A stretch of 62,278 bases of DNA from the NCBI GenBank assembly GCA_003614675.1, contig ML002237.1, positions 1 through 62,278 of the forward strand. The letters run 5' to 3'. Source of the DNA: Dimargaris cristalligena (taxonomy: Eukaryota). The stretch's first letter is position 1, and each line of letters begins with the position of its first letter. The notes under the pieces are model-generated. The model saw only the letters and a program-made list of their open reading frames with translations. It was not told the origin of the DNA and made no database searches. This document shows, piece after piece, positions 1 through 62,131 of the stretch. The translations under genes and the position numbers were made by a program.

Positions 1-3000
1 ACCCCAAGGATCACCCAAGTAAACCACTGTTTCCCAATAATTGCTGCTCATCTTGCCAATGCATATGGAAAAGTGAATCAATTAGGCCAATCCAACATTG
101 TATTATTGGATTTCTAAAGTTCCAGTTAACCTATTGATGAGGTAACCAGCGTAACGCACCCCTCCAGACCTGGTTTGGTCAATCTATAGAACGGGCGGGT
201 AAACAATTACGGATAAATTAAGTGCAACCCCAATAAGATACCCAACCTCAGAAGTAGAGCAGCGCAAGGGGAAGATCCTATCTTACATGGGAATCGGTGA
301 TGGTGGCGGCCCATATACCCGAATCAAGCAATGGCACATCCCTAGAGTTGAACCATCGGGATATCTTCCCTGAAGGTGGCCGCTCTATTATTAATTCTGG
401 TGAAGGAATGCTGATTGCCCAAACTGAACTGACGGGTACTGCCATGATTAAAATGAACGCTATGGACATGTAAGTGAAATGAGTATGGATTCAATAGTCG
501 GAATAAGCAGAAGTTGAAGGTGATCAATATGCTACCGAAAGGCAATCTAACACGATTTGCGCCCCCCCCCCCCTCATCCCACACACTGACACCCGTATAA
601 TTAAATGAGGTGATATCCAGATTCAGTATGGAAATATATGGCCTACAATTGTACAGACTAAACAGCGACTGGATGGAGGACTTTTGAAACACCGTACGGA
701 GGACTAGCCCCATCTTTCCTCGATCTAATAATGGATAAACACCCGTATAATACATAACCACTGTCCTATATTTAGAGGCAGAGTTGATAGTGCGGGCGGA
801 TGGTAGTTTACATTACACGAGCAGCATAGGGATAGCCCCATTGAGACATCAGATCCAATATAGCACCGGCGCCATGCGGGAGAGCTCTATGAAAGGGCAT
901 TGCTTAGATGCTGAGCCCGAAGTTTAGCGCGGCTGGGCAAGGTAATCGCCCGTTGTTTGAACGTGGTTAGACTAACTTTACTCAGCGCCTTTCTTACACT
1001 GTGGTCCGGAGGCCCACTACCATCAACGCCGCCTTCTTTTAGACATTCTTCCACCGACCAACCGTGAAACCCACCCCCTTTACACATGAACGCCCACTTC
1101 TAACAGCTTTTTCCCATATCCATAGACCTGTCATGGGCCCAGGGTACTTCACCAAGGGAATCCAGAATGGTGTGTATAGGTGAGTGTGAATGGATGGATG
1201 TCAGGACCCTTCCCCACCCGCCGGTCATCTACCCTCGACTGGCGGTAAGTTATTATTGGGGAAGGAGAAGGGGGGAGGGGGTATTACGCTGTACTTGTCA
1301 GGTAAATCCTATTTTCCGCCCATTGCCTTTTTCGGTCCGCAAGGCGTCAAAAGTATACACACAACGCTGTACTCTCGTTGATTAGTGTAACGTTCAGTGG
1401 AGTGTTCCAAGCCCTACTTGAACTCTACCCAACTCTTCATCCACTAACTAAAATTACCTGATGATATTGATCTAAATCGATCATTGGTGGTTTCGAATGA
1501 CTATATACCTTACCAATCTGTTTTTGCGAGGGTCAAGAAATTGGTCGGGAAAGAGTTTGCCATTTGCTACATGGGAAAGCGTTCCTTAATTGGAGTCCGA
1601 AGATAGGCGACCTATTGGAGGGAAGGCGGAGAGCAGATTAGAGTACTGCGGCCCACAAGGTTCTGCTTAATCAGGGTGATCGACTAAACCCAGTGGACTT
1701 TTTTGACCAACGGGCGATCGGGACAGAGGCCTAACATATATGCCAATGGGCTTACAGCCGAACCGCTGGCGACTACCGAAAGCAGTATACATAATATCAC
1801 AAATAGTAGCAAGATGGACCAAGGGGGCAGTGGTCCCTTCAGTACCATTTCCCCAGTCAATCCGACAGCTCATCCACTCATGGCTAACTGGTATAGTGGA
1901 TGGGTCCGTGTTTATTACAGTAGGTGTGCTCTAACACCACCCCACCCCGCAGTGAGCCCCCTCGGGATAATATAGTACATACTGAGGGAGGTGACTTTGA
2001 AGGCCCGTCTATAGTTTTATCAGGTTATACCACACTCTAACTGCGCTGACTGTGAAGTAGACTACTCGTCGGGCTCCGTTGGCGTCTATTTTATTGATCG
2101 GTGACTCGACAGTGGTCCAGTGTAGCCGGCCTAGTGAACCCTAAATGAGCGATCACTCCCGCAATTTACCATCTCCACTCCGCCCCCGGCCGCCCATTGA
2201 AGGGTAGTAGAGCCGCTGTTAGATACACCTAAGCCCAATCTGGAATATTAAACGACTGTCCCTCCCTCACCCCGCTCCTTCGTTCACTCGTCTATACACC
2301 CTTAACAGGTGGACTGCCTAACCACCTATTGTGCCGAAACCGATCAGCAGGGCAAGGATGAGTGTACGTTTAGTAATTTGGCATGCCAAATATTAAATAA
2401 AAAAAGGAATAAAAATGGGATCGCCCTGATATCGTGTATGGAGCAGTTTGGAAGCGAAATGGCATTGGCATTGGGAAATGGGGAATAACCTGGCACCAGC
2501 GCCCAGTGGATACTACCCAGGAATACAGGTGTGGTCTTCGGCCTGGGAACTTAGAACCAATAGGGTTATAGCGACCCCGTTTTATCACATCTGAGTAGCG
2601 GGACAGGCTCGGGGTGTGTGACCCCAAGAACCAACCCTCTGCTTCGTGGTGGTGGGCTGACGCTACCAGTTAATAGCACCACTATGCCCCACCGCATTAT
2701 AAGTTCCTGGGCATCCAATGTATTGCACCCCCCCCCCCAACGACCAGCTGCTGATATGCCAATTACACTTGTCATACGGTTTCCAGCCTATAAATAATTT
2801 TTGGAGTTGGCTTAAAGGATATCCAGAACAAAACCTAGCCTTTATTCCCATAAAGGGGTTGGATGAGAAGACAGGGACCATTAATCTAAAATAGGGTGAA
2901 GGTAACAAGGGGGAAAAACAAGATACCCTAGAGTAACGCAAAAATGGGGATACGAAGGTAGAGTAGCCGCCCCCACATTCAATGCGCTCCGGATTAACCG

Positions 3001-6000
3001 AGCTACGACACAACTAATATATTAGGTTGGTATAATAAGTCATTGAACACTGGATCGTTGGATCGTCCCAGTGAACAGAAAGGCATTCAAACCAGGTTTT
3101 ATTCTCGATAGAAATGGGATGGGGAGCCTGAAGTCATGACCATAGCCAAGTTACCAATGGGCTCAGATCAATTAGGAGGGCGTGTGGGGAGGGGGCAGGG
3201 CGGGGGAAGAGGGGGGGTCGCGTGCATTAAAGTGAAGTACATTACAACAATCGGAGTGGGGGGGATAAACCATACCTCCACGCGCGAGGCTAGCCTAGTA
3301 TTCGAGAACAACCTAATTCATCGTCACCGCTTTTTACCAGTACAGCGCACCGTGTCCAGTGCGAGATTCTGTAAATAATCGACAAGACTAACATGATAGT
3401 CACGTCGCATCGTAGTCGATGACGAACCCTGGTTTTTCACGCATGGAAGGTATTAACTAATGGACCGAGAACATGGTCGGTGATTGTCGAGAGAATGGTC
3501 CATCATAAAGAATTGACAGTGGCCATTGCGGGGGGAGGGAGTCAATTAGAGAACAGCGGTCGCTAAGCTTCGACAGGTTTTTACATGGCGGCCCTGCGTA
3601 AGCCATTGGCTTGAGCTCATCAATTTACATTTAGGACCTCCGCAATGATCGTCCCTCTACTAAATTTTCCACCGATTTAGTGCCATCTATTAATCATTTT
3701 TCGTATTTCATGATTCATAGTGGCTTTAACATAAATTATAGGGCTACTTTCAGGGGGAAATTGAACAGTGAAATATCGAGTGGCCTTCCCATGCCCCCCG
3801 CTCGAGAAGTAGTTCGGCTACTCCAATCCGGTCTAATGACGGCTCCTCACCCATAAATATTTCCTTAACCATGTCTGGTGGATTGGCCGGTGATTAGGGC
3901 ACGGATCATGACCCATCCAAGAAGAAAATATATCTAAAAACGATCCGAATATAATCTAAGGGAAAATGGACGAGTGGACCAGGGGTGGGGGAGGGGGAAA
4001 GGAGGTGGACGAAGGGGAGAATGGATGAATTCTCCCCGAAACTGTCGGAAGCTGGTTAATGGCGTCACGGGATCGACTTGAGAAGCACGCTTCAGGTCGA
4101 AAACGGTACTTATGTAAAGCTCAATCCATTTGGCCCCAAGGGAGAGAGAGAGATGGTTATCATTCAAGATCGTAGGGGTGGTTAATGAGCAGGAGAAGGA
4201 TCGGCCCCGCATAGGAGAAGTTCCTGAAGCATCCCGTTGAGAAACTTAGCCAAGGGGAAGAGTGGGAAAGGAGGTTTAAAAGGAGAACTGCGTCAATGAT
4301 ACTCAGGAGGCAAAGAAAGCAATGGCGAGGGAGAGAGAGCTAGAAGACACGCCAGCAAGGTGCCCCTCCCCCCACTAACCACCAACAAAGTGGGAGGATA
4401 GCCCAGGAGAAATGGCAGACTGTGTGAGGAGGAGGTGGGGGAGGCTGGTCTGGAATCGAGAGTACACTTAATCAGCTCATCAACCCCAGGATTACTGCCC
4501 TTGGACCCCCCCCTTCCGTTAGTGGATATTCCCGCCGGTAGGCTCGCAAATGAAGCCGAGTGAGAATTGGAGGATTAAGTGCGGGCCAAGATAATAAAAT
4601 AAAGGGATCAGGGAGATGCGATCGACCGTGGCTTGGCCCGCAATTAGACCAATTATATTGATTCCTTCCTAAAACAAGAAAACCAACCCACACATGGCGG
4701 TGGGGGGAGTTGACCTGTTTTTAATAGATGATATTCACTCGACTCAGTAGGCCTACTTTGCAGAGCAAGTTGGCTGAACAGTAGAATGCATTGGGTGGTT
4801 AAAGGAGGCAAAATGGAGGTAGAGAGAGAGAAAGAAGATAAGGGGAGGGGAGGGAGGCAGTGTCCTATGGCGGAAAATGGGGGGAAGTTGGCGGGATGAG
4901 CCGACCGACCAACCGGTTGGCCGGAAAAACTGGCTTATTCATAAAATAGTAGGGCGGCTGGCTATACGATGCGTTTCTCCGAACACAATGCGGAAAATAG
5001 CCATCCCAACAGCTAGCTTAATGTCATTGGATAGGCAAATGAGGATAACTCCACCCCATTCCCCCTATTGGTCTTTGGCAAATCCCCGAAGATTCGGCTC
5101 CCCACCACCACGAATAGCCGCCTTTTTTCGCTCTTCGGCGAGCCCGAGCCACCGCTTTTGGGTCACCGAAGCCCGGGACATTCCTACAGCTGCGGGGCCA
5201 CGGAAAACCAATGAATTGGCCCCCCAGGCCCTTCGTGGGGCCCAATACGAATACCACATATAATTATAGCACGGATTGGGAGACCTGAGGAATAAAATAA
5301 TGGACCGGTGCCACGTCAACCATGCCGACCCAAGGAAGAAGGGGGGAGAAGAGAGAGAGAGGGCTAACTAGGAGAGATGTGTATGTGACTGTGTGAGGAG
5401 AGGAGGGGGGAGAATCGGAGGAGAGGAAAAGGAAGGAGGGGGGAGTGGGATAGGAACGGGGAGAAGCGGGCAGCGATTTAACCCAAGACCATGTAGGGAT
5501 AAAACTAATCGCTGTGCAGGGTAGTCTCAACAGCAGCAAAACCTGAAGACTGGAACTCACCCTCGCTGCCTCTCTGTCCGCCTCCCTCTTTATTTCTCAG
5601 ATATGGAGGGGGGAATGACATCGCTCTGCGCATTGCACAGCTAAGCAAGGGGGCACTCCTCTATTGATTTTCTTGGGTCAGTACCTGACTTCTTTCACTT
5701 CCTTTCCCTAACGGATAGGTGTAAGGCCAACTGCGTCCATATCAATACGGGCTGCTGAATGGTGCTGCATACTGCAACGCGCCATGTGCAACACTAGTAA
5801 GGTACAAATAACCAGGAGGGGAAGTTGTGAAATGTGGGCAGTGTTTGATGAACGATGAGTAGATGCAGGCGTGGTTGTGAATTCGTTCGACCGAATAGGA
5901 GGGCCAACGAGGGTATATCTATGGTTATAAATGGGGAATAGGGTGGGGAAATAAGGAGCTGTCCTTCTCCTCCTCCTCCTCCGGTCGCTCCTACGCCAAC

Positions 6001-47921: not shown

Positions 47922-49475
47922 ATGTTCAACCGTTTCACCAATTTTGTGGAGGAGCAGGCCGGTCGCTTCAGCGGCAATTCCGACGACGATAAGGAGCGCG
48001 CTCCCTACGGCGGTGGCTATCAGCAATCGTCCCAGTACCCCGGTCAACAGGGCGGTAGCTACGGTGGCCAGTACCCTTCTTCCCCATACCAGAACCAAGG
48101 AGGCGGCGGCTACCCTGGCCAGCAGGGTGGTGGCTACGGCGGTGGCGAGGGTGGCGGTTATCCCAACCAGTATCCCCCTCAGCATGGTGGAGGCGGTCCG
48201 TACGGCCAGCATAATGCCTACCCCGGCCAATACGGCGGCGGGGGTGGTGGCGACATGAACTTCCAGGGTGGCGGACACTATCCCCCTCCTCCCAACCAGG
48301 GGTTCGGTGGAATGGGGGGCTACCCCGGCCAACAGGGCGGTGGTAACTACGGCCCCGGTGCCCATGTTGACCAACAGGGCCATCAGGTGTACCAACCCCA
48401 TGATTCCCAGGCCTACAACAACCCCCCACCGCCCCAGGGGCCCGGTCCCCACGGGATGCACATTGCCCCACCCGGCAGTCAGTTCTACGCGGATCCCAAC
48501 CAGAGCGGCAACGGAGGCATGTACTCCCAGGAAATCGGCGGCTACCAGATGTCGCTGTCCAACTGTCGGGGGCGCAAGAAGGCTCTGTTCATTGGTATCA
48601 ACTACTTCAACACCGACGCCGAGCTGAAGGGTTGTATCAACGACGTCAAGAACATCTCGTCGTTCCTCATTGAGCGCAAGGGCTTCAAACAGAGTGACTG
48701 TGTGTTCTTGACCGACGACCAGCAGGACCCCAAGTTCATCCCCACCTACGCCAATATCCAGGCCGCCTGTAACTGGCTGGTCAAGGGCGCCAACCCCGGC
48801 GATTCCCTCTTTGTGCATTACTCGGGCCACGGGGGGACCCAAAAGGACACCAACGGGGATGAGGCCGACGGCTTTGACGAAACTATCCTGCCGATTGACT
48901 ACAAAGAGGCGGGCCAAATCCCCGACGACTTGCTCAACGAGTGGTTGGTCCAACCCCTCCCCCAGGGTGTCCGTTTGACCGCGGTTTTCGACTCGTGCCA
49001 CAGCGGGACCGTGCTCGACCTGCCTTATACTTACAACTGCGACGGGTCCATCCAGGTCATCACCTCCGATAACCGCAAGGAAGCCGCCATGACCCTCCTC
49101 AACGCCGGCATGAGCTTCCAACAGGGTGACTCCATGAAGGCCCTCCAGGGTCTGGTGCAGGGCTTTAAAATGTTCACCTCGGGCGGCCAGGCCAACGAAG
49201 CCGACAAGCTCACCAAGGAAACCAAGGGTACCACAGCTGATGTGGTCATGTTCTCCGGCTGTCGGGATGACCAAACCTCGGCCGACGCCCAGATTAATAA
49301 CCAGGCCACCGGGGCCATGAGCCACGCCCTCATTGAAGTACTCACCAATTCGCAGAGCCTCGTGTATACCGAATTACTCTTCTCGATTCGGGATATTCTC
49401 AAGTCCAAATACAAGCAAATTCCCCAAATGTCCACTGGTCGTCCCATGGATATGAACACCGAGTTTATCATCTAA
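47922..49475 (+). CDS. MCA1: Type I metacaspase with a Gly/Tyr/Gln/Pro-rich prodomain, intronless
   Basis: KKALFIGINY, LKGCINDV, catalytic HYSGHG and DSCHSG, FSGCRDDQTSADA, QIPQMS. The real ATG is at 47922 (GCCATG); the ORF-track TTG start is upstream UTR. Confidence 0.97.
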   Translation: MFNRFTNFVEEQAGRFSGNSDDDKERAPYGGGYQQSSQYPGQQGGSYGGQYPSSPYQNQGGGGYPGQQGGGYGGGEGGGYPNQYPPQHGGGGPYGQHNAYPGQYGGGGGGDMNFQGGGHYPPPPNQGFGGMGGYPGQQGGGNYGPGAHVDQQGHQVYQPHDSQAYNNPPPPQGPGPHGMHIAPPGSQFYADPNQSGNGGMYSQEIGGYQMSLSNCRGRKKALFIGINYFNTDAELKGCINDVKNISSFLIERKGFKQSDCVFLTDDQQDPKFIPTYANIQAACNWLVKGANPGDSLFVHYSGHGGTQKDTNGDEADGFDETILPIDYKEAGQIPDDLLNEWLVQPLPQGVRLTAVFDSCHSGTVLDLPYTYNCDGSIQVITSDNRKEAAMTLLNAGMSFQQGDSMKALQGLVQGFKMFTSGGQANEADKLTKETKGTTADVVMFSGCRDDQTSADAQINNQATGAMSHALIEVLTNSQSLVYTELLFSIRDILKSKYKQIPQMSTGRPMDMNTEFII

Positions 49476-50226: not shown

Positions 50227-51648
50227 TTAAAAGACGGTAGAAGTGGGACGGGGACGGCACTTCTTCTTGGTGGGGGCCGGGACTATCGGGGCCATATTGG
50301 CCGGGTCCGATTCCATGGTGGGAATCACCACTGGGGCCAAGTTTTCGGTAGGGATAGGGGTCACTTCCTCGTTCATGGGCTCCGGGTCCGTCGTCGGGGT
50401 AGTGTCAAAGTTAGCAGGCTCGTCCACCGGGGCCAGCATAGGCGCAATGGTTTCCTCGGCAGCGGGCATGAGGCTGGTTTCGGTAGAAGTAGTAGTAGTC
50501 GTTGTGTCTTCTTCAGGAACCATAGCGGCCACGGCGGGGACAGTGGTGTCATCGGTGGTAGTGGCAGCGGCGGGCTGTTCATCAACGGTGGTTTGGGGGG
50601 CACACTTGGACTGGGCTTCGCAGTCTTCATTTTCGGGAACCATGGCGGCAATGGGGACGACGGCCGCTTCCGTGGCAGCCGGCTCTTCAACGGTCGAGAA
50701 GCTGGTTTCGGTAAGAGTAGAAGTCGTCGTCGTCGTCGTTTCTTCTTCTTCAGGTACCATCATCGCGGCGGCAGCGGGGTCTTCGTCCACGGTGGTTTGG
50801 GGGGCACACTTGGACTGGGTTTCGCAGTCTTCATTTTCGGGAACCATGGCGGCAATGGGGACGACGGCCGCATCCGTGGCAGCAGGTTCATCCGAAGAAG
50901 TGGAAGTGGTGGTAGTCTCGCTATCGCCAGCCGCCAAAGCAGCGGCCACCGGAATCGCCGCTACCGCCGCCGGGGCCAAATTCGAACCCTCGTCGGAGGT
51001 AGTTTCTTCCGTCAAGTAAGCGCCCGTGGCCGTAGGGGCCAGGGCAATGGGATCCAACGAAGTGGTTTCGGTATTCAAATTACCCACGGGCACCACGACT
51101 GGAATGGGGATAATGGCATTGCTTTCGCTAGTAGGCGTGGCGGTGGAAGTGGAGGTATCGGTGGCGACCAAGTCAGCGGCAGTAGTGGTCGAGGTGGTGG
51201 TGGTGGTGGACGAAGATTCAGCACCGCCCAAGTTAGCCAAGCCCAACCCTACAGCGGCACCCAGTGCGGCGGGAATAGCCACATTAGAGCTTTCCGTTTC
51301 CGTAGGGGCGGCCGAGCTCACATTGGTGGTTTCGGTAGCGGCAGCTAAAGCGGCGGCACTGGCGGAAGAAGCACTTTCGGAGGCTGCCAAGGCAGCGGCG
51401 GAGGCACTTTCCTCGTCGGCCTGGGCCTTTTCGCCCTTTTCCTTGAAGTATTTGACCGCTTGGTAGCCCAAGGCGCCGATGGCGCCACCCGCGAGGATCG
51501 TTTTCAAACCCCGCTTATCCAACTGGCCCTGCTGTTCGGTGGCGGAGGGGGGTTGGGTCCGGGTGGGAGTGGGCACGGGGTGACTAAAAGTACCACTGGC
51601 GCTTAGTAGAAGCGCGGTTAGAAAAGGAACGGTTAATTTTTGATGCAT
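50227..51648 (-). CDS. Secreted Thr/Ala/Glu/Pro-rich mucin-like protein with a Kex2 site and an internal repeat
   Basis: Signal peptide MHQKLTVPFLTALLLSASGTFS, LDKR dibasic site and two copies of EPAAT(D/E)AAVVPIAAMVPENEDCE(T/A)QSKCAPQTTVDE. TATAAATA on the minus strand at about 52039-52046. Confidence 0.88.
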   Translation of the reverse strand: MHQKLTVPFLTALLLSASGTFSHPVPTPTRTQPPSATEQQGQLDKRGLKTILAGGAIGALGYQAVKYFKEKGEKAQADEESASAAALAASESASSASAAALAAATETTNVSSAAPTETESSNVAIPAALGAAVGLGLANLGGAESSSTTTTTSTTTAADLVATDTSTSTATPTSESNAIIPIPVVVPVGNLNTETTSLDPIALAPTATGAYLTEETTSDEGSNLAPAAVAAIPVAAALAAGDSETTTTSTSSDEPAATDAAVVPIAAMVPENEDCETQSKCAPQTTVDEDPAAAAMMVPEEEETTTTTTSTLTETSFSTVEEPAATEAAVVPIAAMVPENEDCEAQSKCAPQTTVDEQPAAATTTDDTTVPAVAAMVPEEDTTTTTTSTETSLMPAAEETIAPMLAPVDEPANFDTTPTTDPEPMNEEVTPIPTENLAPVVIPTMESDPANMAPIVPAPTKKKCRPRPTSTVF

Positions 51649-56149: not shown

Positions 56150-57742
56150 TTACACGGCTCGGAAATCCTGGCGCACGTCGGGCGGCAAACTAGCCATTCC
56201 GTACCGCCGAATATGCTGGGGTGTCCGGGGCTGCAACGAGACCGCATTCAGTCCTTCATTGTCGGGTTTATAGCGGGCGTGGATCGTGGATAACAGGGAA
56301 ATCATGCAACCCAAGGCCACGATCAGGTTCCAAATGAATCCCCAAAAGTCAAGGTAGCAGATCCCACGCGGAATGTGGGGTTGGAGGGACCGCAACACGG
56401 GTAACATGAGGACACAGGAACCACTGATGACCAAGAAACTGGGGGACGGTTGGGCCTCGCGGTAGACCCAGCAACTGCGGACGGTGAGGGCTAGGAGTGG
56501 GATGGTGAGAATGTACATGAGGAAGGTGATGAGAATGGCCACCGCCATGACAGCGGTTTGCCGCCGCGCGGTCACGATGAGGTCGGCGGACGAATCGCGG
56601 GTTTCAAACGTGGGGTGTTGGGTTTGTGAGCCAAAAGGCGGGGGGTCTGCGAAAGGGTCGAGGGCCTGGTCGCTATCGTAGGGAACCACCCGAAACGTGT
56701 GTCCGACCATATGGACACTCGGGAAAACGAGGAGGGTGGGTATCCGCTCGCCTTTGGTCCGTGTCGTCGTACTACTACTAGTAGTAGTCTGATTATTATT
56801 ATTATCCTTTCCCGCCGTTGTCCCATTCACTACTACCTCTCGGCTAAAACTAAAGGACAATTTAATCTCGAACCGGTCAAAAGGGTAAAATACGGCTTTT
56901 CCGGCCATGATGGGCAGGGCCAGTTCGGCCGGTCGCAGGCGCGTTTGGGCCGGCATAGTATAGGTTTCGTGGTAATAATCGACCAAAAGGTCCGAATACA
57001 ACAGTCCCCGCTCGTCCGTCAAATTGGCCCCGGTGGTCATGCGGGGTTCCAAAAGGACCCGCATTGTCTGTTGATCGACGCTGAATTCCAGGACCCGGAA
57101 GTTGACCACCACTCCTTCAAACGGCTTCTGGGTGGAATGGGGAGGGGTCGTATTGGCGGATTGGAGGTTATGGGGGATGGTTGTTGATAATAAGGTAGCC
57201 GTTGTGGCCGTGGTGGTAGCCGTAACACTGGGGGGAAGCACTCGTTGACCGTCGTAAATCAAGAATGACGGGGGTCGATTGTCACCCCAGTGGTTGTACA
57301 GCAAGAAAAAACTGGTGGGTACGATGGTCAGCCACACGAGCATGAGGGCACATATCCACATGATGGCACGAACCAGCATGTACCGCCGCCAGGCCCGGAC
57401 TTTCTGCTGCACCAGTTGCTGGATGGATTGGCTGCGGCGGAGCTGGAGCGGTTCCCCACCAATACGGCCAAGTATGGCCGATGCCGACCCCCCGCTGCTG
57501 CTACTGGACTTTCCGGTGGTGGTCCCCCCCAGCAGACCCCGGCCCGGGGCGGAATTGGCGGCCGTACTATGCGGGGAATGGTCCGGGAGAATGGGGGCGT
57601 CGGGACCCGAAGCAATCTCCTCATGCAGGGTACTCGACGGTGAATGGTCAAAGGTGTAGGAAGTGCCCGTCGGGGCTGTGGAGGAGCGGGCCATGGGGGT
57701 ACCGGAGTTCCCCAGGCGGGTAAACATGAGTTTTCTAAGCAT
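56150..57742 (-). CDS. DUF4436-like membrane protein (1 N-terminal + 3 C-terminal TM helices, beta-rich ectodomain with YPFD)
   Basis: 530-aa intronless ORF. TM AIMWICALMLVWLTIVPTSFFLLY, the FYPFDRF motif and three hydrophobic segments after TARRQ with LPVLRSLQPHIP and LDFWGFIWN, which fit my recollection of DUF4436. Confidence 0.75.
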   Translation of the reverse strand: MLRKLMFTRLGNSGTPMARSSTAPTGTSYTFDHSPSSTLHEEIASGPDAPILPDHSPHSTAANSAPGRGLLGGTTTGKSSSSSGGSASAILGRIGGEPLQLRRSQSIQQLVQQKVRAWRRYMLVRAIMWICALMLVWLTIVPTSFFLLYNHWGDNRPPSFLIYDGQRVLPPSVTATTTATTATLLSTTIPHNLQSANTTPPHSTQKPFEGVVVNFRVLEFSVDQQTMRVLLEPRMTTGANLTDERGLLYSDLLVDYYHETYTMPAQTRLRPAELALPIMAGKAVFYPFDRFEIKLSFSFSREVVVNGTTAGKDNNNNQTTTSSSTTTRTKGERIPTLLVFPSVHMVGHTFRVVPYDSDQALDPFADPPPFGSQTQHPTFETRDSSADLIVTARRQTAVMAVAILITFLMYILTIPLLALTVRSCWVYREAQPSPSFLVISGSCVLMLPVLRSLQPHIPRGICYLDFWGFIWNLIVALGCMISLLSTIHARYKPDNEGLNAVSLQPRTPQHIRRYGMASLPPDVRQDFRAV

Positions 57743-57792: not shown

Positions 57793-57793
57793 G

Positions 57794-57822
<29 letters not shown>
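57793..57822. repeat. (TG)n microsatellite in the leader of the DUF4436-like gene
   Basis: Read directly from the sequence. Confidence 0.85.
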
Positions 57823-57824
<2 letters not shown>

Positions 57825-58443
57825 GAGGGAGGGAGTGGAATGGGAGACTGCAAGGGAAGACCCTTAGGAAAGGGAAGCGAGTATTCACGGTAGAAAAAAT
57901 TTAGAGCACAAGTTAATGATACTGGGCAGACAGATAGACAGAAAACTCCGAAATAATCGAGATGATTACTGGAGAGAGAGATGTATTTATACAAGAAAAG
58001 GGTAGAAAAGGCGAAGCGGGCTCTAATCAACAGAAGATGCAATAAACAGAGCACTTCGAAGAGTAATATATATCATGGAAAGGTAAGAAACGGTAGCTCA
58101 ACACTGGGGTTTATGGTTAAGATGGGCGGAGGAATATGTGGATATATAACATAGCCGTAATTTAGGGAACCAGTGTCGTGTTCGTTGTTAACGGTGGCGA
58201 TAATGACTCGTTAAAGAAGAGTGAAGGTACATTAAATAAACCTGTCGCGTAAAGCACACTTTAGTGATTTTTGGAGGGAATGTGTGGAGCATTGGGGCCC
58301 AACGGCCGAGAGGGACCTACGTAGTATATAAACTCCAAGAAAGTGGGGCCGGTGCGTTATAAAGGGTATCCTTACGGATTATACTCGGCGTCGTCGTCCT
58401 TTTCCCCGCACTAATAATGCCCGAATTTAATATAGAGGGCCCT

Positions 58444-58489
58444 AGAGAGAAAGAGAGAGAGAGAGAGAGAGTGTGTGTGTGTGTGTGTG
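58444..58489. repeat. Compound (AG)n(TG)n microsatellite
   Basis: Read directly from the sequence. Confidence 0.9.
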
Positions 58490-60322
58490 CGTGCTTCTTC
58501 TGGTCGGAGGATTCGCGGGGGCGGGGGAGGAGTGGGGCGAGGGTGCGGGGATACGCACCCTCCACCCAATCTTTGTTAGCCCTGGAAATGCCCGTAATTT
58601 GGGCCATTTAAATCCCCGGAAAAAGGTTATTCCTCTGCAGTTCAATAGCACCTGGACTAATCGTGCCACTGGGCGGAATTGCTCTCGCTCGCAATCGAAC
58701 ACAGAGGGAGGGAGAGGGAACAGGGGCCGTGTGGAGAAGACGAATAATGAAGGGGACGGTCACACTCACCTCACCCGCTCTCTCTCTCTTACTCACTCGC
58801 ACTTATTCCTTCTTTTCGTCCCGATTACAACGGGTGCCCCAGGTCAAATTTAGATGCCGATCAATCAACTCGGGGCCCCTAATAATATATTAGACGAGCG
58901 CAAGAGTTGGCCAATGGGGGTCACTAACCGTTTCTGACTATAGAACGATTACTACTCTTCTTTCCCCTATATATTTCGTCAAGAGACCTCTCGCCTATCT
59001 AAATGCTCGCTTTTTAGGTTACCGTATATCCAACCAACCGTCTCAGCTCACCCAATATCCGTAAAAATAGCATAGCTCATACATACAGCAGGGTGGTGCA
59101 AGTAATAGACGAATAATAATCTAATCATTCTTACTGTAAATATAACAATGGGAATGAGGATCGGTGGTTGGCCATGTCTTTGTCTTTTCTCCATACAGTA
59201 CAAACCCTCTCCTTCTCGTACTCTCTCTTGTTCTCTCTCTATTCTTCACAATACATTGTACTTCAACACCCTCCCCTCCCCAATTTTACTTCGCCGTCAT
59301 ATTCGAATAAACATTAGGCGAAGGCCATGGGACAGAGGGTCGGTTTGAAGTCTATCAGCATCGGCATGTCCTGCTCTAATCACATAGTGAATCCCCCGAC
59401 TGGCATTAATGCAAAGATCCTGGTTAGGTTATTTCCTCCCAATTGATAAGCATTGGCGGCCATCTCAAAATAATCTCCAGTATCGGGCCTTTTATCTTGA
59501 AAACCAATTGCCATGATAGGCTAAACTATCCAACCGGTATTTCAAGCGTGAGGGTGCGGTTAAACAGCGGCCATTTTCTGTTGCATCCCATCTTCTTGAA
59601 CTATGCGTTTGGAGTGTTCTTTAAAACATAGTAGCTAGAATAGAAAACTACCCGGCATTTGCTTCTCTTGAGCTTTAACCCACCACTGCACGAAGACGGT
59701 GTAATCGAGAAGACCAAAAGCTGGACTATTGGTTTTCGGTGATGAGAATACCCTATAACGAATTAAAAGATGGTAGGGATAGAGTGTTATGCATAAAGAA
59801 GGCAGGGGGGGGTGGCCGCGAAATTCCCAATCATGTGCCCTGCCTTATCCGATGAAAGTAAAGACGTTTCAGCTTTAAGATGGCCAATAATTCTTGGCGT
59901 AAATCTCTAAAGGGTTAGTTGGCTGCGAAGATTCAGTGGAGCAGGTGCTAATATATAAACCTGGCCAAATGGGAAAATAATAGGCCTTTAAAAATAGAAT
60001 CTAAGCTAGACCGGCAACTAGGCATTTTTAAGGGCAGTTGTTATCATAGACAACCTCGCCCAGAAAAAGATCACAAGATACCAGTTCCGACTAGACATCA
60101 CCATGTTAAAGAAATCTGGCCCATTCTAAAATTCCCCACTCCCGATGTCTCAAAAATGCGGGTAGTATATAAAATAGCCCAAATTTATAAAACACCACTA
60201 GACTGGTAAATGAATTTAATAATATATCAGGACAGATATAGAGGTAATAATGGTTAACCAAAAATACAAACTCACAATAAAAAACAATCAGTGACCGTTT
60301 TCCCATTGGCCCAAATGGAGTG

Positions 60323-62131
60323 TTAAAAGTTGGATTCATTCAAAGACGACCCGCTCATGGCGAATAGTAATGAGTCGTTGTCTTCCATGTCTGGTGTAAT
60401 CACAACATTATGGGTGGGCTGGGAGGAGGTCTTTCGGTGGCCTTCCGTCAATCGACCGTTGGTTGTCGCAGAGGGATAGGGTGAGTCCAGGGTGTAGCCA
60501 CGGAGGGCCGAAACCAAGGGAGTAGGTCCGTATAGAGGGCCGGGGGATCCACCCCCACTGGAGGGATGAAACCCCGCAATGGATTGCCCGACGGTCACGG
60601 ACTGGTGCTGAACCGTGGCAATGGGTGAAGCGGTGGGATGGGGGCCAAATTTGGGGGGAGCGGAGGGTAGTTCAGCTTTGAACTGGTGGTAGTTGGGTGA
60701 GCCCGGGGGGTCAGAGAGTGAAAAACGACCATGAGCTGTGCCATAAGAAGGGATATTGGTGGCGGTGGTGTTGGCTGGATAGGGTGCGATATTGGGCTTG
60801 GGCGACGAGGGGTTGTTCCCTTTATTGCCCCCGCGGGACCAGTAGCCGTTACTTCGGCTGGGTATTGGTGCTGGAACACGACTGCGGGTATCCGCCTCGT
60901 CCTGGCTATCGGCCTCATCATCTTCTTCCTCGCCCTCGGTCTCCTCATGCGAGTGTACATGAGTAGGTGCAAGTGGGCGCGACCTGAACCGTCGAATTCC
61001 ATTATCGCCTTGCGCGATGCTTCCAGCTCGATTACGATTAGCACTATTGGGTTTGTAGTACAGTTGAGCGGTTGGGTGGATAGGTACACTAGCCGCTTTA
61101 AAAATATCTCCTTTTCCATTACCGCTTTTGCCAGATTCAACAATTTCTTTGGCGCCCTGGCCCTGTTGGTCGGCTGGGTTGACAAATGGGGAAGTTGGCT
61201 CGCGTGGGGAGTGCGAGTACAACGCACGGGTAGACTGTTCCGAAGGTGACCGAGTCGTCGGCACTGCGAGCGGGGGGCCGCCACCTACATTCAAAGCGAT
61301 GGAATCCGCCATGAAATTGTACGATTGGCGAAGGCGCCGAAAATGGCCAAGGTCACCACCACTTCCAACAGTGGTGGCACTGGGACCCGTTGCTGGCTGT
61401 GCCATTCTTGACGGACCAGCTGGACCAATCGAGGCGGGGGATTGATGCACCACCTGATTAGGGGAAGGGTCGCCCCTCTCAACCAGTGGCTGGTGGGGTG
61501 GATCCATGCGACGACGGGTGGCTATACTCGTCGGTGGTTTGACAGTCCCCGCTTTGGGCAGCCGAAGCGGAGTTTGGGAGTCGAGAATGCGCTGAAATTC
61601 GGCAGTATCCTGGTCGAAGGAGTCCATTTCCCAGGGGGGGATAGAGTCCCGCCCCAGGGATACTCGGCGAGAGGGGAGTTGTGGGTGGTGCTGTAAACTA
61701 GGGTTACTGTCGTTTGCGGGCGGCGCATTGAGGCTCATATCAGAGATACTTTCGGCGCAATCACTGAGGAGTGACTGTCGGCGTTGGTTGGTCACAGTCC
61801 CCGCCCGGGGATAACCTGTGGCCGTTACACCGCCGCCACCGCCACTGACCCCACCACCGCTTCCGGACGCTGACCCTTGGGAAGTACTGGGTCGGGCCAG
61901 GATGGGCGATACGGGGGAATGAGGGTCTCGGATACCCTCAGTTGACATGGTGTTAGATTGACGGTACCGATGGGCGAACGAGGAGGATAGACGGGGTGGG
62001 CTTCCCGCCACAGACTCCGACCCCAGGGGGTTGGACCGCGAGGCGACTGTGGCCGAGGACTGGGGCCTTGTTACTGGGTTAGTGAGGCCAGTGGGGTCCC
62101 CCCCAGAGGAAGTTGAGTAATTGGCAGATGT
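60323..62131 (-). CDS. ATG13: Autophagy-related protein 13, 3' exon (disordered C-terminal region); the HORMA-domain exons presumably lie beyond the window end
   Basis: The fungal Atg13 motifs appear in order: RLSSSFAHR (Atg17-binding-like), DTAEFQRILDSQTPL (MIM-N-like), LGHFRRLRQSYNFMADSI (MIM-C-like) and terminal DNDSLLFAMS. The frame is open to 62131. The exact acceptor is unresolved. Confidence 0.78.
   Translation of the reverse strand, partial: TSANYSTSSGGDPTGLTNPVTRPQSSATVASRSNPLGSESVAGSPPRLSSSFAHRYRQSNTMSTEGIRDPHSPVSPILARPSTSQGSASGSGGGVSGGGGGVTATGYPRAGTVTNQRRQSLLSDCAESISDMSLNAPPANDSNPSLQHHPQLPSRRVSLGRDSIPPWEMDSFDQDTAEFQRILDSQTPLRLPKAGTVKPPTSIATRRRMDPPHQPLVERGDPSPNQVVHQSPASIGPAGPSRMAQPATGPSATTVGSGGDLGHFRRLRQSYNFMADSIALNVGGGPPLAVPTTRSPSEQSTRALYSHSPREPTSPFVNPADQQGQGAKEIVESGKSGNGKGDIFKAASVPIHPTAQLYYKPNSANRNRAGSIAQGDNGIRRFRSRPLAPTHVHSHEETEGEEEDDEADSQDEADTRSRVPAPIPSRSNGYWSRGGNKGNNPSSPKPNIAPYPANTTATNIPSYGTAHGRFSLSDPPGSPNYHQFKAELPSAPPKFGPHPTASPIATVQHQSVTVGQSIAGFHPSSGGGSPGPLYGPTPLVSALRGYTLDSPYPSATTNGRLTEGHRKTSSQPTHNVVITPDMEDNDSLLFAMSGSSLNESNF

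Follow-up and report, generated by a model that had tools for sequence, protein, structure and literature searches.

Whether fungi possess any relative of the ligand-gated ion channels that form pentamers (pLGICs) is the question raised by a single open reading frame (ORF) of Dimargaris cristalligena. The ORF lies at 56150..57742 on the minus strand of a 62,278-nt stretch of contig ML002237.1 (the window; all coordinates refer to this whole stretch in forward-strand numbering) and encodes 530 amino acids (aa), as claimed in an earlier note on this DNA, which described the product as a fungal Cys-less pLGIC-like protein with helix M4 apparently replaced by an N-terminal helix. That pLGICs are considered absent from fungi, the premise of the note, agrees with the accessible part of a published inventory, in which none is detected in fungi (PMC4795631). 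We have found that the protein belongs to the family DUF4436 (PF14494). Our reading, to which we attach a probability of roughly 0.7, is that DUF4436 is a very divergent, M4-less branch of the Pro-loop/pLGIC superfamily and that the window ORF is a eukaryotic member, probably working in the manner of a pLGIC. The remote homology of DUF4436 and pLGICs is the part of this that we hold to be highly probable; that the proteins actually function as gated channels is a possibility that we place somewhat short of an even chance.

Membership of DUF4436

The window protein matches the Pfam DUF4436 profile with 24.1 bits, above the curated cut-off of 23.2 (E = 2.7e-5, profile positions 149–247 of 255), and no other Pfam family at E ≤ 10, so that the description as DUF4436-like was correct. 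A word-indexed search yielded three proteins at E ≤ 1e-3 among 7919 candidates: the window protein itself, whose database copy of 525 aa begins at residue 6, and two proteins of Tieghemiomyces parasiticus with 40–41% identity. When 1.84 billion representatives were searched exhaustively, 82 proteins had E ≤ 1e-3, of which four reach 1e-10 and two 1e-30 or better, the best match other than itself having E = 2.5e-94. The Pfam match and the 82 relatives together indicate that the ORF is more than a chance reading frame. The family profile is matched by 60 of the 61 aligned relatives, with a best E of 9.7e-45. By sequence comparison, then, the window protein is a borderline-scoring yet genuine member of DUF4436.

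Typical members are about 300–370 aa long, compared with 530 aa here. The additional length lies in an N-terminus of low complexity (115 aa), a Thr-rich stalk and a pair of low-complexity insertions in the ectodomain. The M2 block is also less canonical (MLPVLRSLQPHIP compared with LFALPALRNxQPGxP in the family), which accounts for the borderline Pfam score. The window ORF is thus a divergent, insertion-rich fungal member of the family. Two other eukaryotic DUF4436 proteins, from Edaphochlamys debaryana (771 aa) and Gryganskiella (676 aa), are about twice the usual length, the former being matched in four stretches, which suggests that such forms may be fused or duplicated.

Sequence comparison with pLGICs

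As a single sequence, the window protein finds nothing in the PDB at E ≤ 10 with phmmer. The profile of the DUF4436 family, used with hmmsearch, has matches at E = 1.4e-4 and 1.6e-4 to chemotactile receptors of octopus, and a broader 84-row family profile matches them at E = 9.9e-5 and 1.0e-4. The alignment to the octopus receptor CRT1 places the YPFD of DUF4436 on the YPFD of CRT1 and continues through beta7–beta10 and the pre-M1 Arg into M1.

For a direct profile–profile comparison, canonical bacterial pLGICs were gathered from genomes by a search with PF02931. One was found in 1 of 3 genomes with DUF4436 loci and in 16 of 301 genomes of one phylum; 18 proteins were recovered and 15 aligned, three near-duplicate or truncated frames being excluded. 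Against these 15, the DUF4436 alignment scored a probability of 81.8% in hhalign (E = 1.1e-5, 141 columns), rising to 88.9% with the 84-row alignment (E = 2.4e-6, 147 columns). Controls, comprising two reversed and eight column-shuffled alignments, gave scores of 10.8–20.2, compared with 50.2, and probabilities of at most 0.5%. The alignment pairs YPFD with FPFD, R394 of the window protein with the pre-M1 Arg, and P458 with the Pro of the M2–M3 loop.

These positions are among those conserved in the pLGICs themselves. Seven superfamily-conserved positions are tabulated in the accessible part of the inventory (Table 1 of PMC4795631), which gives 100% and 93% for the Pro and Asp of the beta6–beta7 loop, 94% for the pre-M1 Arg, the salt-bridge partner of the Pro-loop Asp, 88% for the M2–M3 loop Pro, 77% for the Pro at M1 14' that kinks M1, and W in 71% and F/Y in 27% for the beta9 aromatic. 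DUF4436 has four of the seven Table 1 positions (the F/Y, P and D of beta6–beta7 and the pre-M1 R) and a fifth, the M2–M3 P. The hallmarks named in the earlier note therefore stand for [F/Y]PxD, the pre-M1 Arg and the M2–M3 Pro. The Asp at the start of M3, which it had included, does not belong with them: present in 113 of 114 DUF4436 proteins, this residue (D 26') is, in the literature consulted, typical only of metazoan anionic channels and not a hallmark of the superfamily.

Two observations concern the bacterial pLGICs themselves. One Burkholderiales metagenome-assembled genome has, besides its DUF4436 gene, a pLGIC gene of the canonical kind (Neur_chan_LBD, E = 9.6e-18), so that the two kinds coexist and are not simple alternatives. 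In a cyanobacterial pLGIC-like subgroup only the second half of Neur_chan_LBD is matched (profile positions ~98–216, E = 1e-4 to 1e-6) and YPLD stands in place of FPFD; as its four C-terminal helices are kept, we regard it as a divergent canonical group.

Structural comparison with pLGICs

The structural results rest on models predicted with AlphaFold2. The whole model, covering aa 110–530 and built from a 61-row alignment, has a mean predicted local distance difference test score (pLDDT) of 79.6 and a predicted template modelling score (pTM) of 0.71; in it a beta-sandwich stands between a long helix at the N-terminus and three long helices that follow. In the model the sandwich would be extracytoplasmic and the three following helices would correspond to M1, M2 and M3. 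Foldseek gave at least 500 matches to the PDB at E ≤ 1e-3, all the matches listed being pLGICs and the best among them a glycine receptor (GlyR, 9pky_E, E = 2.9e-7). When 999 Foldseek chains were realigned, 551 had Z ≥ 8, with a best Z of 9.7 and a root-mean-square deviation (rmsd) of 4.4–6.0 over 199–226 residues.

A search independent of Foldseek, with VIA-align against 48,161 representative chains, placed the zinc-activated channel ZAC (8wge_A) at rank 1 (Z = 9.7, rmsd 5.1, 226 residues). The best 50 of the 48,161 include 20 pLGIC rows, and these alone align over both domains with 195 or more residues; the remaining 30 are helical proteins with at most 121 residues aligned, most with 75–99 on the three-helix part, at Z 8.2–9.3. 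The ectodomain folded alone (aa 200–396, pLDDT 83.8, pTM 0.74) has pLGIC ectodomains at all of ranks 1–26 of the 48,161 chains (Z 9.4–6.2, 114–133 residues). The first unrelated chain appears at rank 27, the acetylcholine-binding proteins lie at Z 5.7–5.9, and generic sandwiches (growth-hormone receptor, C2, FN3) follow just below the pLGICs. Neighbours found by an independent structure search of the Atlas include clusters of glycine receptors and acetylcholine receptors (TM 0.44 and 0.35). The Foldseek and profile–profile comparisons suggested in the earlier note have thus returned pLGIC matches, with a superposition that is moderate and an ectodomain that on its own stays above E = 1e-3; predicted fold, profile–profile comparison and the shared [F/Y]PxD, pre-M1 Arg and M2–M3 Pro all agree with its proposal that DUF4436 is a relative of pLGICs.

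A complex prediction with two copies of aa 115–504 scored 0.01 against a mark of 0.32; made without controls, it speaks neither for nor against oligomerisation. Parts of the DUF4436 models carry the Atlas labels PF30641 and PF30642, neither of which is in the Pfam copy used, and the family may have been split or renamed in newer releases.

Conserved positions and a possible mechanism

Conservation was assessed over 114 proteins, 61 from the representative search and 53 bacterial ORFs. Y/F 286 and P287 are found in all 114, D289 in 109 with E in four more (D/E in 113), and the pre-M1 R394 in 110. In the M2-like helix P448 is present in 100 and R451 in 113, in the following loop P455 in 112 and P458 in 110, and D465 at the start of the M3-like helix in 113. 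The window protein has Y286, P287, D289, R394, P448, R451, P455, P458 and D465, that is, all the family-invariant positions tested. The longest conserved block runs from the end of the M2-like helix through the loop to the start of the M3-like helix (consensus LFALPALRNxQPGxPxxGxxxDxxGFFWN). A hydrophobic segment precedes YPFD in 105 of the 114 members by a crude hydropathy count, and the commonest pattern, in 72 of the 114, is exactly one segment before and three after the Pro-loop. By this measure an N-terminal helix of signal-anchor type is a conserved feature of DUF4436.

Because conservation peaks at the end of M2, the M2–M3 loop, the start of M3, YPFD and the pre-M1 Arg, we consider it most likely that these proteins work on the pLGIC principle. 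A change in the ectodomain, brought about by a ligand, pH or an ion, would act as the trigger, and the signal would be relayed to M2 by way of the Pro-loop, the pre-M1 Arg and the M2–M3 loop. In an oligomeric, probably pentameric, ring this would then open or close a pore. The N-terminal helix (TM0) would probably derive from a pLGIC signal peptide retained uncleaved, and may or may not fill the lipid-facing position of M4.

Alternative explanations

A number of our results weigh against placing DUF4436 in the pLGIC superfamily as a working branch. Among the pLGICs in the PDB other than the octopus subgroup, none reaches a significant E with the family profile; the hhalign probability stays below 90% and the alignment covers just the second half of the ectodomain up to the start of M3; and the window protein has no match at E ≤ 10 to Neur_chan_LBD (PF02931) or Neur_chan_memb (PF02932), neither of which is among the best 25 of the 53 Pfam families matched by the 61 relatives. 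The M1 14' Pro is replaced by T406 in the window protein and mostly by Met in the family, and just 4 of 114 members have a Pro at any place in the M1 window. In a region of low alignment confidence, the beta9 column is aromatic in 55 of 114 (F 28, Y 17, W 10) and mostly aliphatic in the rest, the window protein having His 348. M4 is absent from the window protein by hydropathy, and a Pro in the middle of M2 with a near-invariant Arg near its outer end is unusual for a pore-lining helix. On the structural side, the Foldseek TM-scores of the whole model are low (0.24–0.33, with rmsd ~10–18), a Z of 9.7 with an rmsd of ~5 is middling on the scale of VIA-align itself, three-helix bundles reach Z 8.2–9.3 on the membrane part alone, and AlphaFold2 models may lean towards known folds. 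The ectodomain alone has no Foldseek match at E ≤ 1e-3; its best is a nicotinic beta3 ectodomain at E = 8.6e-3 (TM 0.31), and growth-hormone receptor also ranks near the top.

It is the middling Z, the low TM-scores, the ectodomain failing in Foldseek with generic sandwiches close behind, and the lack of a Neur_chan match that would be expected if the likeness were convergent or an artefact of modelling, DUF4436 then being an unrelated single-pass-plus-three-helix protein with a generic sandwich and a chance YPFD. We think this improbable. The sequence comparisons, which involve no structure, yield E-values between 1e-4 and 2e-6, and their controls are clean; YPFD, the pre-M1 Arg and the Pro of the loop fall on the corresponding pLGIC residues, with order and spacing preserved; and pLGICs both hold the first 26 ranks for the ectodomain and are the sole two-domain matches in the best 50 of 48,161 chains. 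More weight has to be given to the view that DUF4436 is homologous to pLGICs yet does not conduct, serving as a membrane-anchored receptor, sensor, scaffold or cell-surface protein, though we still judge it unlikely. The near-conserved Pro and near-invariant Arg of M2 fit it, as do the loss of M4 and of the M1 kink Pro. The whole LFALPALRN stretch is conserved rather than one helical face, which suggests tight packing over a water-filled pore; the long insertions of the window protein, rich in Thr/Ser/Asn and probably glycosylated, are of a kind typical for surface proteins of fungi; and the bacterial loci have no conserved partner genes that would point to transport. Missing operon partners would, however, also suit a self-contained channel, and the best-kept residues are those that couple ectodomain to membrane, a set without obvious purpose unless the membrane domain is gated.

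The fate of M4 bears on the remaining alternative, in which the N-terminal helix functionally replaces M4, packed on M1 and M3 at the lipid-facing site as if by circular permutation. M4 is a peripheral, lipid-facing helix in solved pLGICs, and its truncation is tolerated in some prokaryotic channels. M4 is indeed absent here and the orientation of TM0 is compatible with the replacement proposed in the earlier note: it would run in-to-out as M4 does, by the distribution of charges and sequons, it is kept across the family (105 of 114), and the model of pTM 0.71 shows it as a confident helix. On the other hand, TM0 is joined to the first strand by a long linker of low confidence, and a hydrophobic N-terminal segment also occurs in 13 of 18 canonical bacterial pLGICs. 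A circular permutation, to which the note had likened the layout, is not needed, because a pLGIC signal segment kept as an uncleaved anchor together with the loss of M4 explains the layout; this is the simplest origin of the 1 + 3 arrangement. We therefore hold the functional replacement of M4 by TM0 only tentatively, with the balance somewhat against it, and the fuller proposal, of working pentameric gated channels on a 1 + 3 plan whose N-terminal anchor stands in for M4 in its lipid-facing role, to be unlikely as it stands. Were it true, Pro-loop receptors would be present in many soil bacteria and in fungi all the way from chytrids to Dikarya; next to the Cys-loop and the Cys-less four-helix channels there would be a third architectural class, sensing an extracellular small molecule, pH or a metal. 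The membership of DUF4436 in the pLGIC superfamily, with a probable pLGIC-type working, remains the reading that we prefer.

Anatomy of the gene and protein

The gene is a single uninterrupted exon, and tblastn found no second copy inside the window. All seven peptide strings quoted in the earlier note are present in the claimed order, with FYPFDRFEIKLSFS exactly at 56890–56849, and the layout that it described, one transmembrane segment before the ectodomain and three after it followed by a short polar tail, is also found. Features are collected in Table 1; hydropathy is that of Kyte and Doolittle with a 19-aa window. The peaks of the M2- and M3-like helices are at aa 435–453 (1.77) and aa 469–487 (2.07), the quoted M1, M2 and M3 strings being aa 397–419, 435–455 and 466–484. 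There is no peak after aa 487, which gives the 1 + 3 helix pattern of the window protein. Model residues 41–100, in the region of the linker, have a pLDDT of 40–69.

The five Cys (131, 424, 443, 462 and 479) are all in or beside helices, and since none falls in the ectodomain this is properly termed Cys-less. The net charge of the 15 aa preceding TM0 is +4, and the four N-x-S/T sequons all lie within aa 197–317. This distribution of charges and sequons fits a topology with the N-terminus inside, the ectodomain outside and the C-terminus inside; TM0 is predicted to be of signal-anchor type and to run in-to-out, and both aa 1–115 and the C-terminal tail are predicted to be cytoplasmic.

Table 1. 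Features of the DUF4436 gene and its product, with positions in the window
Feature	Residues	Position	Strand	Remarks
DUF4436 ORF	1–530	56150..57742	−	530 aa + stop; ATG to stop, uninterrupted, single exon
N-terminal region	1–115	57398..57742	−	Low-complexity, rich in Ser/Thr/Gly/Pro; outside folded model
TM0, N-terminal hydrophobic helix	123–141	57320..57376	−	Hydropathy peak 2.33; model pLDDT 84–94
TM0-to-sandwich linker	142–207	57122..57319	−	Thr/Ser/Pro-rich, mostly low confidence; sequon N-x-T at N197
Ectodomain beta-sandwich	208–394	56561..57121	−	Two low-complexity insertions, no Cys; sequons N240, N306, N317
GVVVNF...LLEP	210–233		−	Peptide quoted in earlier note
FYPFDRFEIKLSFS	285–298	56890–56849	−	Quoted string
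YPFD	286–289	56876..56887	−	Equivalent of Pro-loop (beta6–beta7) tip
ADLIVTARR	386–394		−	Quoted string; ends at pre-M1 Arg
Pre-M1 Arg	394	56561..56563	−	Aligned to pre-M1 Arg of bacterial pLGICs (hhalign)
M1-like helix	397–419	56486..56554	−	Hydropathy peak aa 401–419 (2.58); lacks pLGIC M1 Pro at aligned position
M2-like helix	434–452	56387..56443	−	Helix 325–343 of model; contains P448 and R451
M2–M3 loop equivalent	453–462	56357..56386	−	P455 and P458; family motif QPGxP
HIPRGICYLD	456–465		−	Quoted string
M3-like helix	463–489	56276..56356	−	Helix 354–380 of model; starts with near-invariant D465
C-terminal tail	490–530	56153..56275	−	~40 aa, polar, basic, net charge +3; no M4-like hydrophobic segment

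Dinucleotide microsatellites are found upstream of the ORF, with (GT)16.5 just before its start at 57793–57825 and, farther away, (AG)14 at 58444–58471 followed directly by (GT)11.5 at 58471–58493.

Distribution, phylogeny and genomic context

The closest named homologues of the window protein are from Dimargaritales fungi. Twenty representatives were looked up, of which 12 bear fungal names, one is from a green alga (Edaphochlamys) and seven are without a name. The fungi are Dimargaris, Ramicandelaber, Calcarisporiella (twice), Sorochytrium, Basidiobolus, Conidiobolus, Neoconidiobolus (twice), Dissophora with other Mortierella-type genera, Batrachochytrium and Entomophthora, so that Kickxellomycotina, Mucoromycota, Mortierella-type genera, Entomophthoromycotina, Blastocladiomycota and Chytridiomycota are represented. 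DUF4436 clusters in the Atlas are commonest in Chytridiomycota, Basidiomycota, Mucoromycota, Actinomycetota, Pseudomonadota and Acidobacteriota. When bacterial genomes were scanned with a 5-row bacterial subset of the family alignment, 273 of 365 candidate stretches were confirmed as DUF4436 loci. Of the 80 retained, most belong to Acidobacteriota, Burkholderiales-type bacteria and Verrucomicrobiota; cyanobacteria and Chloroflexota contribute a single locus each, and other groups a few. This sample is biased to Acidobacteriota-like sequences and contains no Actinomycetota.

In a FastTree phylogeny (114 rows, 298 columns, midpoint root, no Actinomycetota among the bacterial rows) the window protein clusters with proteins of Tieghemiomyces and Dimargaris at a support of 99. 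On one side of the tree are 14 of the 15 fungus-labelled rows with 31 unlabelled rows and no bacterial row; on the other are all 54 bacterial rows, the algal row and one Entomophthora row. The support of this basal split is only 82, and many branches are long, which leaves the deep relations unsure. The window protein thus stands with fungi and apart from the 54 bacterial rows, and the 114-row tree has no sign of a recent bacterial transfer into this fungus.

No conserved partner gene was found among the 106 ORFs flanking 53 bacterial DUF4436 loci. The commonest flanking family is SIS (7 of 106), and pump parts of the MacB, FtsX and HlyD type occur twice each; since no partner is shared, the operons give no hint of function. 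At Verrucomicrobiota loci a same-strand ORF of ~210–225 aa recurs 28–207 bases downstream of the DUF4436 gene (locus ~4850–5650).

Three other ORFs of the window may be mentioned. That at 47922–49475 (+) encodes 517 aa, with an N-terminal half rich in Gln/Gly/Tyr/Pro and a Peptidase_C14 caspase domain at aa 218–505 (E = 2.5e-40), in sequence the apparent layout of a fungal metacaspase. That at 50227–51648 (−) encodes 473 aa rich in Ser/Thr/Ala/Glu with a hydrophobic N-terminal start and no Pfam match; it contains a long internal duplication, the stretch starting AAVVPIAAMVPENEDCE being present twice, and its product may be a secreted or wall protein. The third, at 60323–61948 (−), encodes 541 aa of low complexity, rich in Ser/Pro/Gly, and has no Pfam match.

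Significance

The points of interest are the occurrence in fungi and the 1 + 3 helix plan. In the literature searched, which did not cover supplementary files, we found no link between DUF4436 and pLGICs and no mention of PF14494 or IPR027948, and among the matches listed for M4-less or three-helix pLGICs, fungal pLGICs found by Foldseek and remote pLGIC homologues found with AlphaFold there was nothing relevant. DUF4436 appears in the accessible part of one paper, where a gene of Aspergillus flavus is tabulated among those whose relative expression is higher in a poor biocontrol strain.

Should DUF4436 come to be accepted as one branch of the superfamily, fungi would no longer be an exception, the minimal pLGIC unit would be a sandwich with M1–M3, M4 being dispensable in nature, and a large unannotated family, with 273 bacterial loci in one scan, would gain a testable mechanism. 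For fungal biology it would provide a candidate fast extracellular sensor. The compact homologues are better suited to experiments than the divergent, insertion-rich window gene.

Comparison with known systems

The nearest system is the DUF4436 family itself, uncharacterised and found in fungi, some algae and many bacteria. The window protein has in common with it the 1 + 3 helix layout and the near-invariant YPFD, Arg, LPxLRxxQPxxP and Asp positions.

The octopus chemotactile receptor CRT1 (8eis/9e6b) is the sole solved protein matched significantly by the DUF4436 sequence profile. Cephalopod chemotactile receptors are four-helix animal pentamers derived from nicotinic receptors, and the match, of ~95 residues at low identity, is uninformative on shared ligands. 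The top structural match in both VIA-align searches is ZAC (8wge), with a Z of 9.7 when the whole model is used and of 9.4 with the ectodomain. ZAC and the other metazoan Cys-loop receptors (GABA-A, GlyR, nAChR and GluCl) have 7–14% identity in the structural alignments; compared with them the window protein is without the cysteines of the Cys-loop, the M3–M4 cytoplasmic domain and M4, while the Asp of DUF4436 at the start of M3 recalls D 26' of the metazoan anionic channels.

The prokaryotic pLGICs (GLIC, ELIC, sTeLIC and DeCLIC; PF02931 + PF02932) align with the whole model at Z 8.9 for GLIC, 8.6 for sTeLIC, 8.5 for DeCLIC and 8.2 for ELIC, and with the ectodomain at Z 8.3 for sTeLIC, 7.3 for ELIC and 6.9 for GLIC. 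Four hydrophobic segments follow the ectodomain in 15 of the 18 canonical bacterial pLGICs. The window protein differs from the prokaryotic channels in having no M4, no M1 Pro and no match to the Neur_chan hidden Markov models and in its additional N-terminal membrane anchor, but resembles them in its Cys-less Pro-loop and in its beta-sandwich followed by M1–M3.

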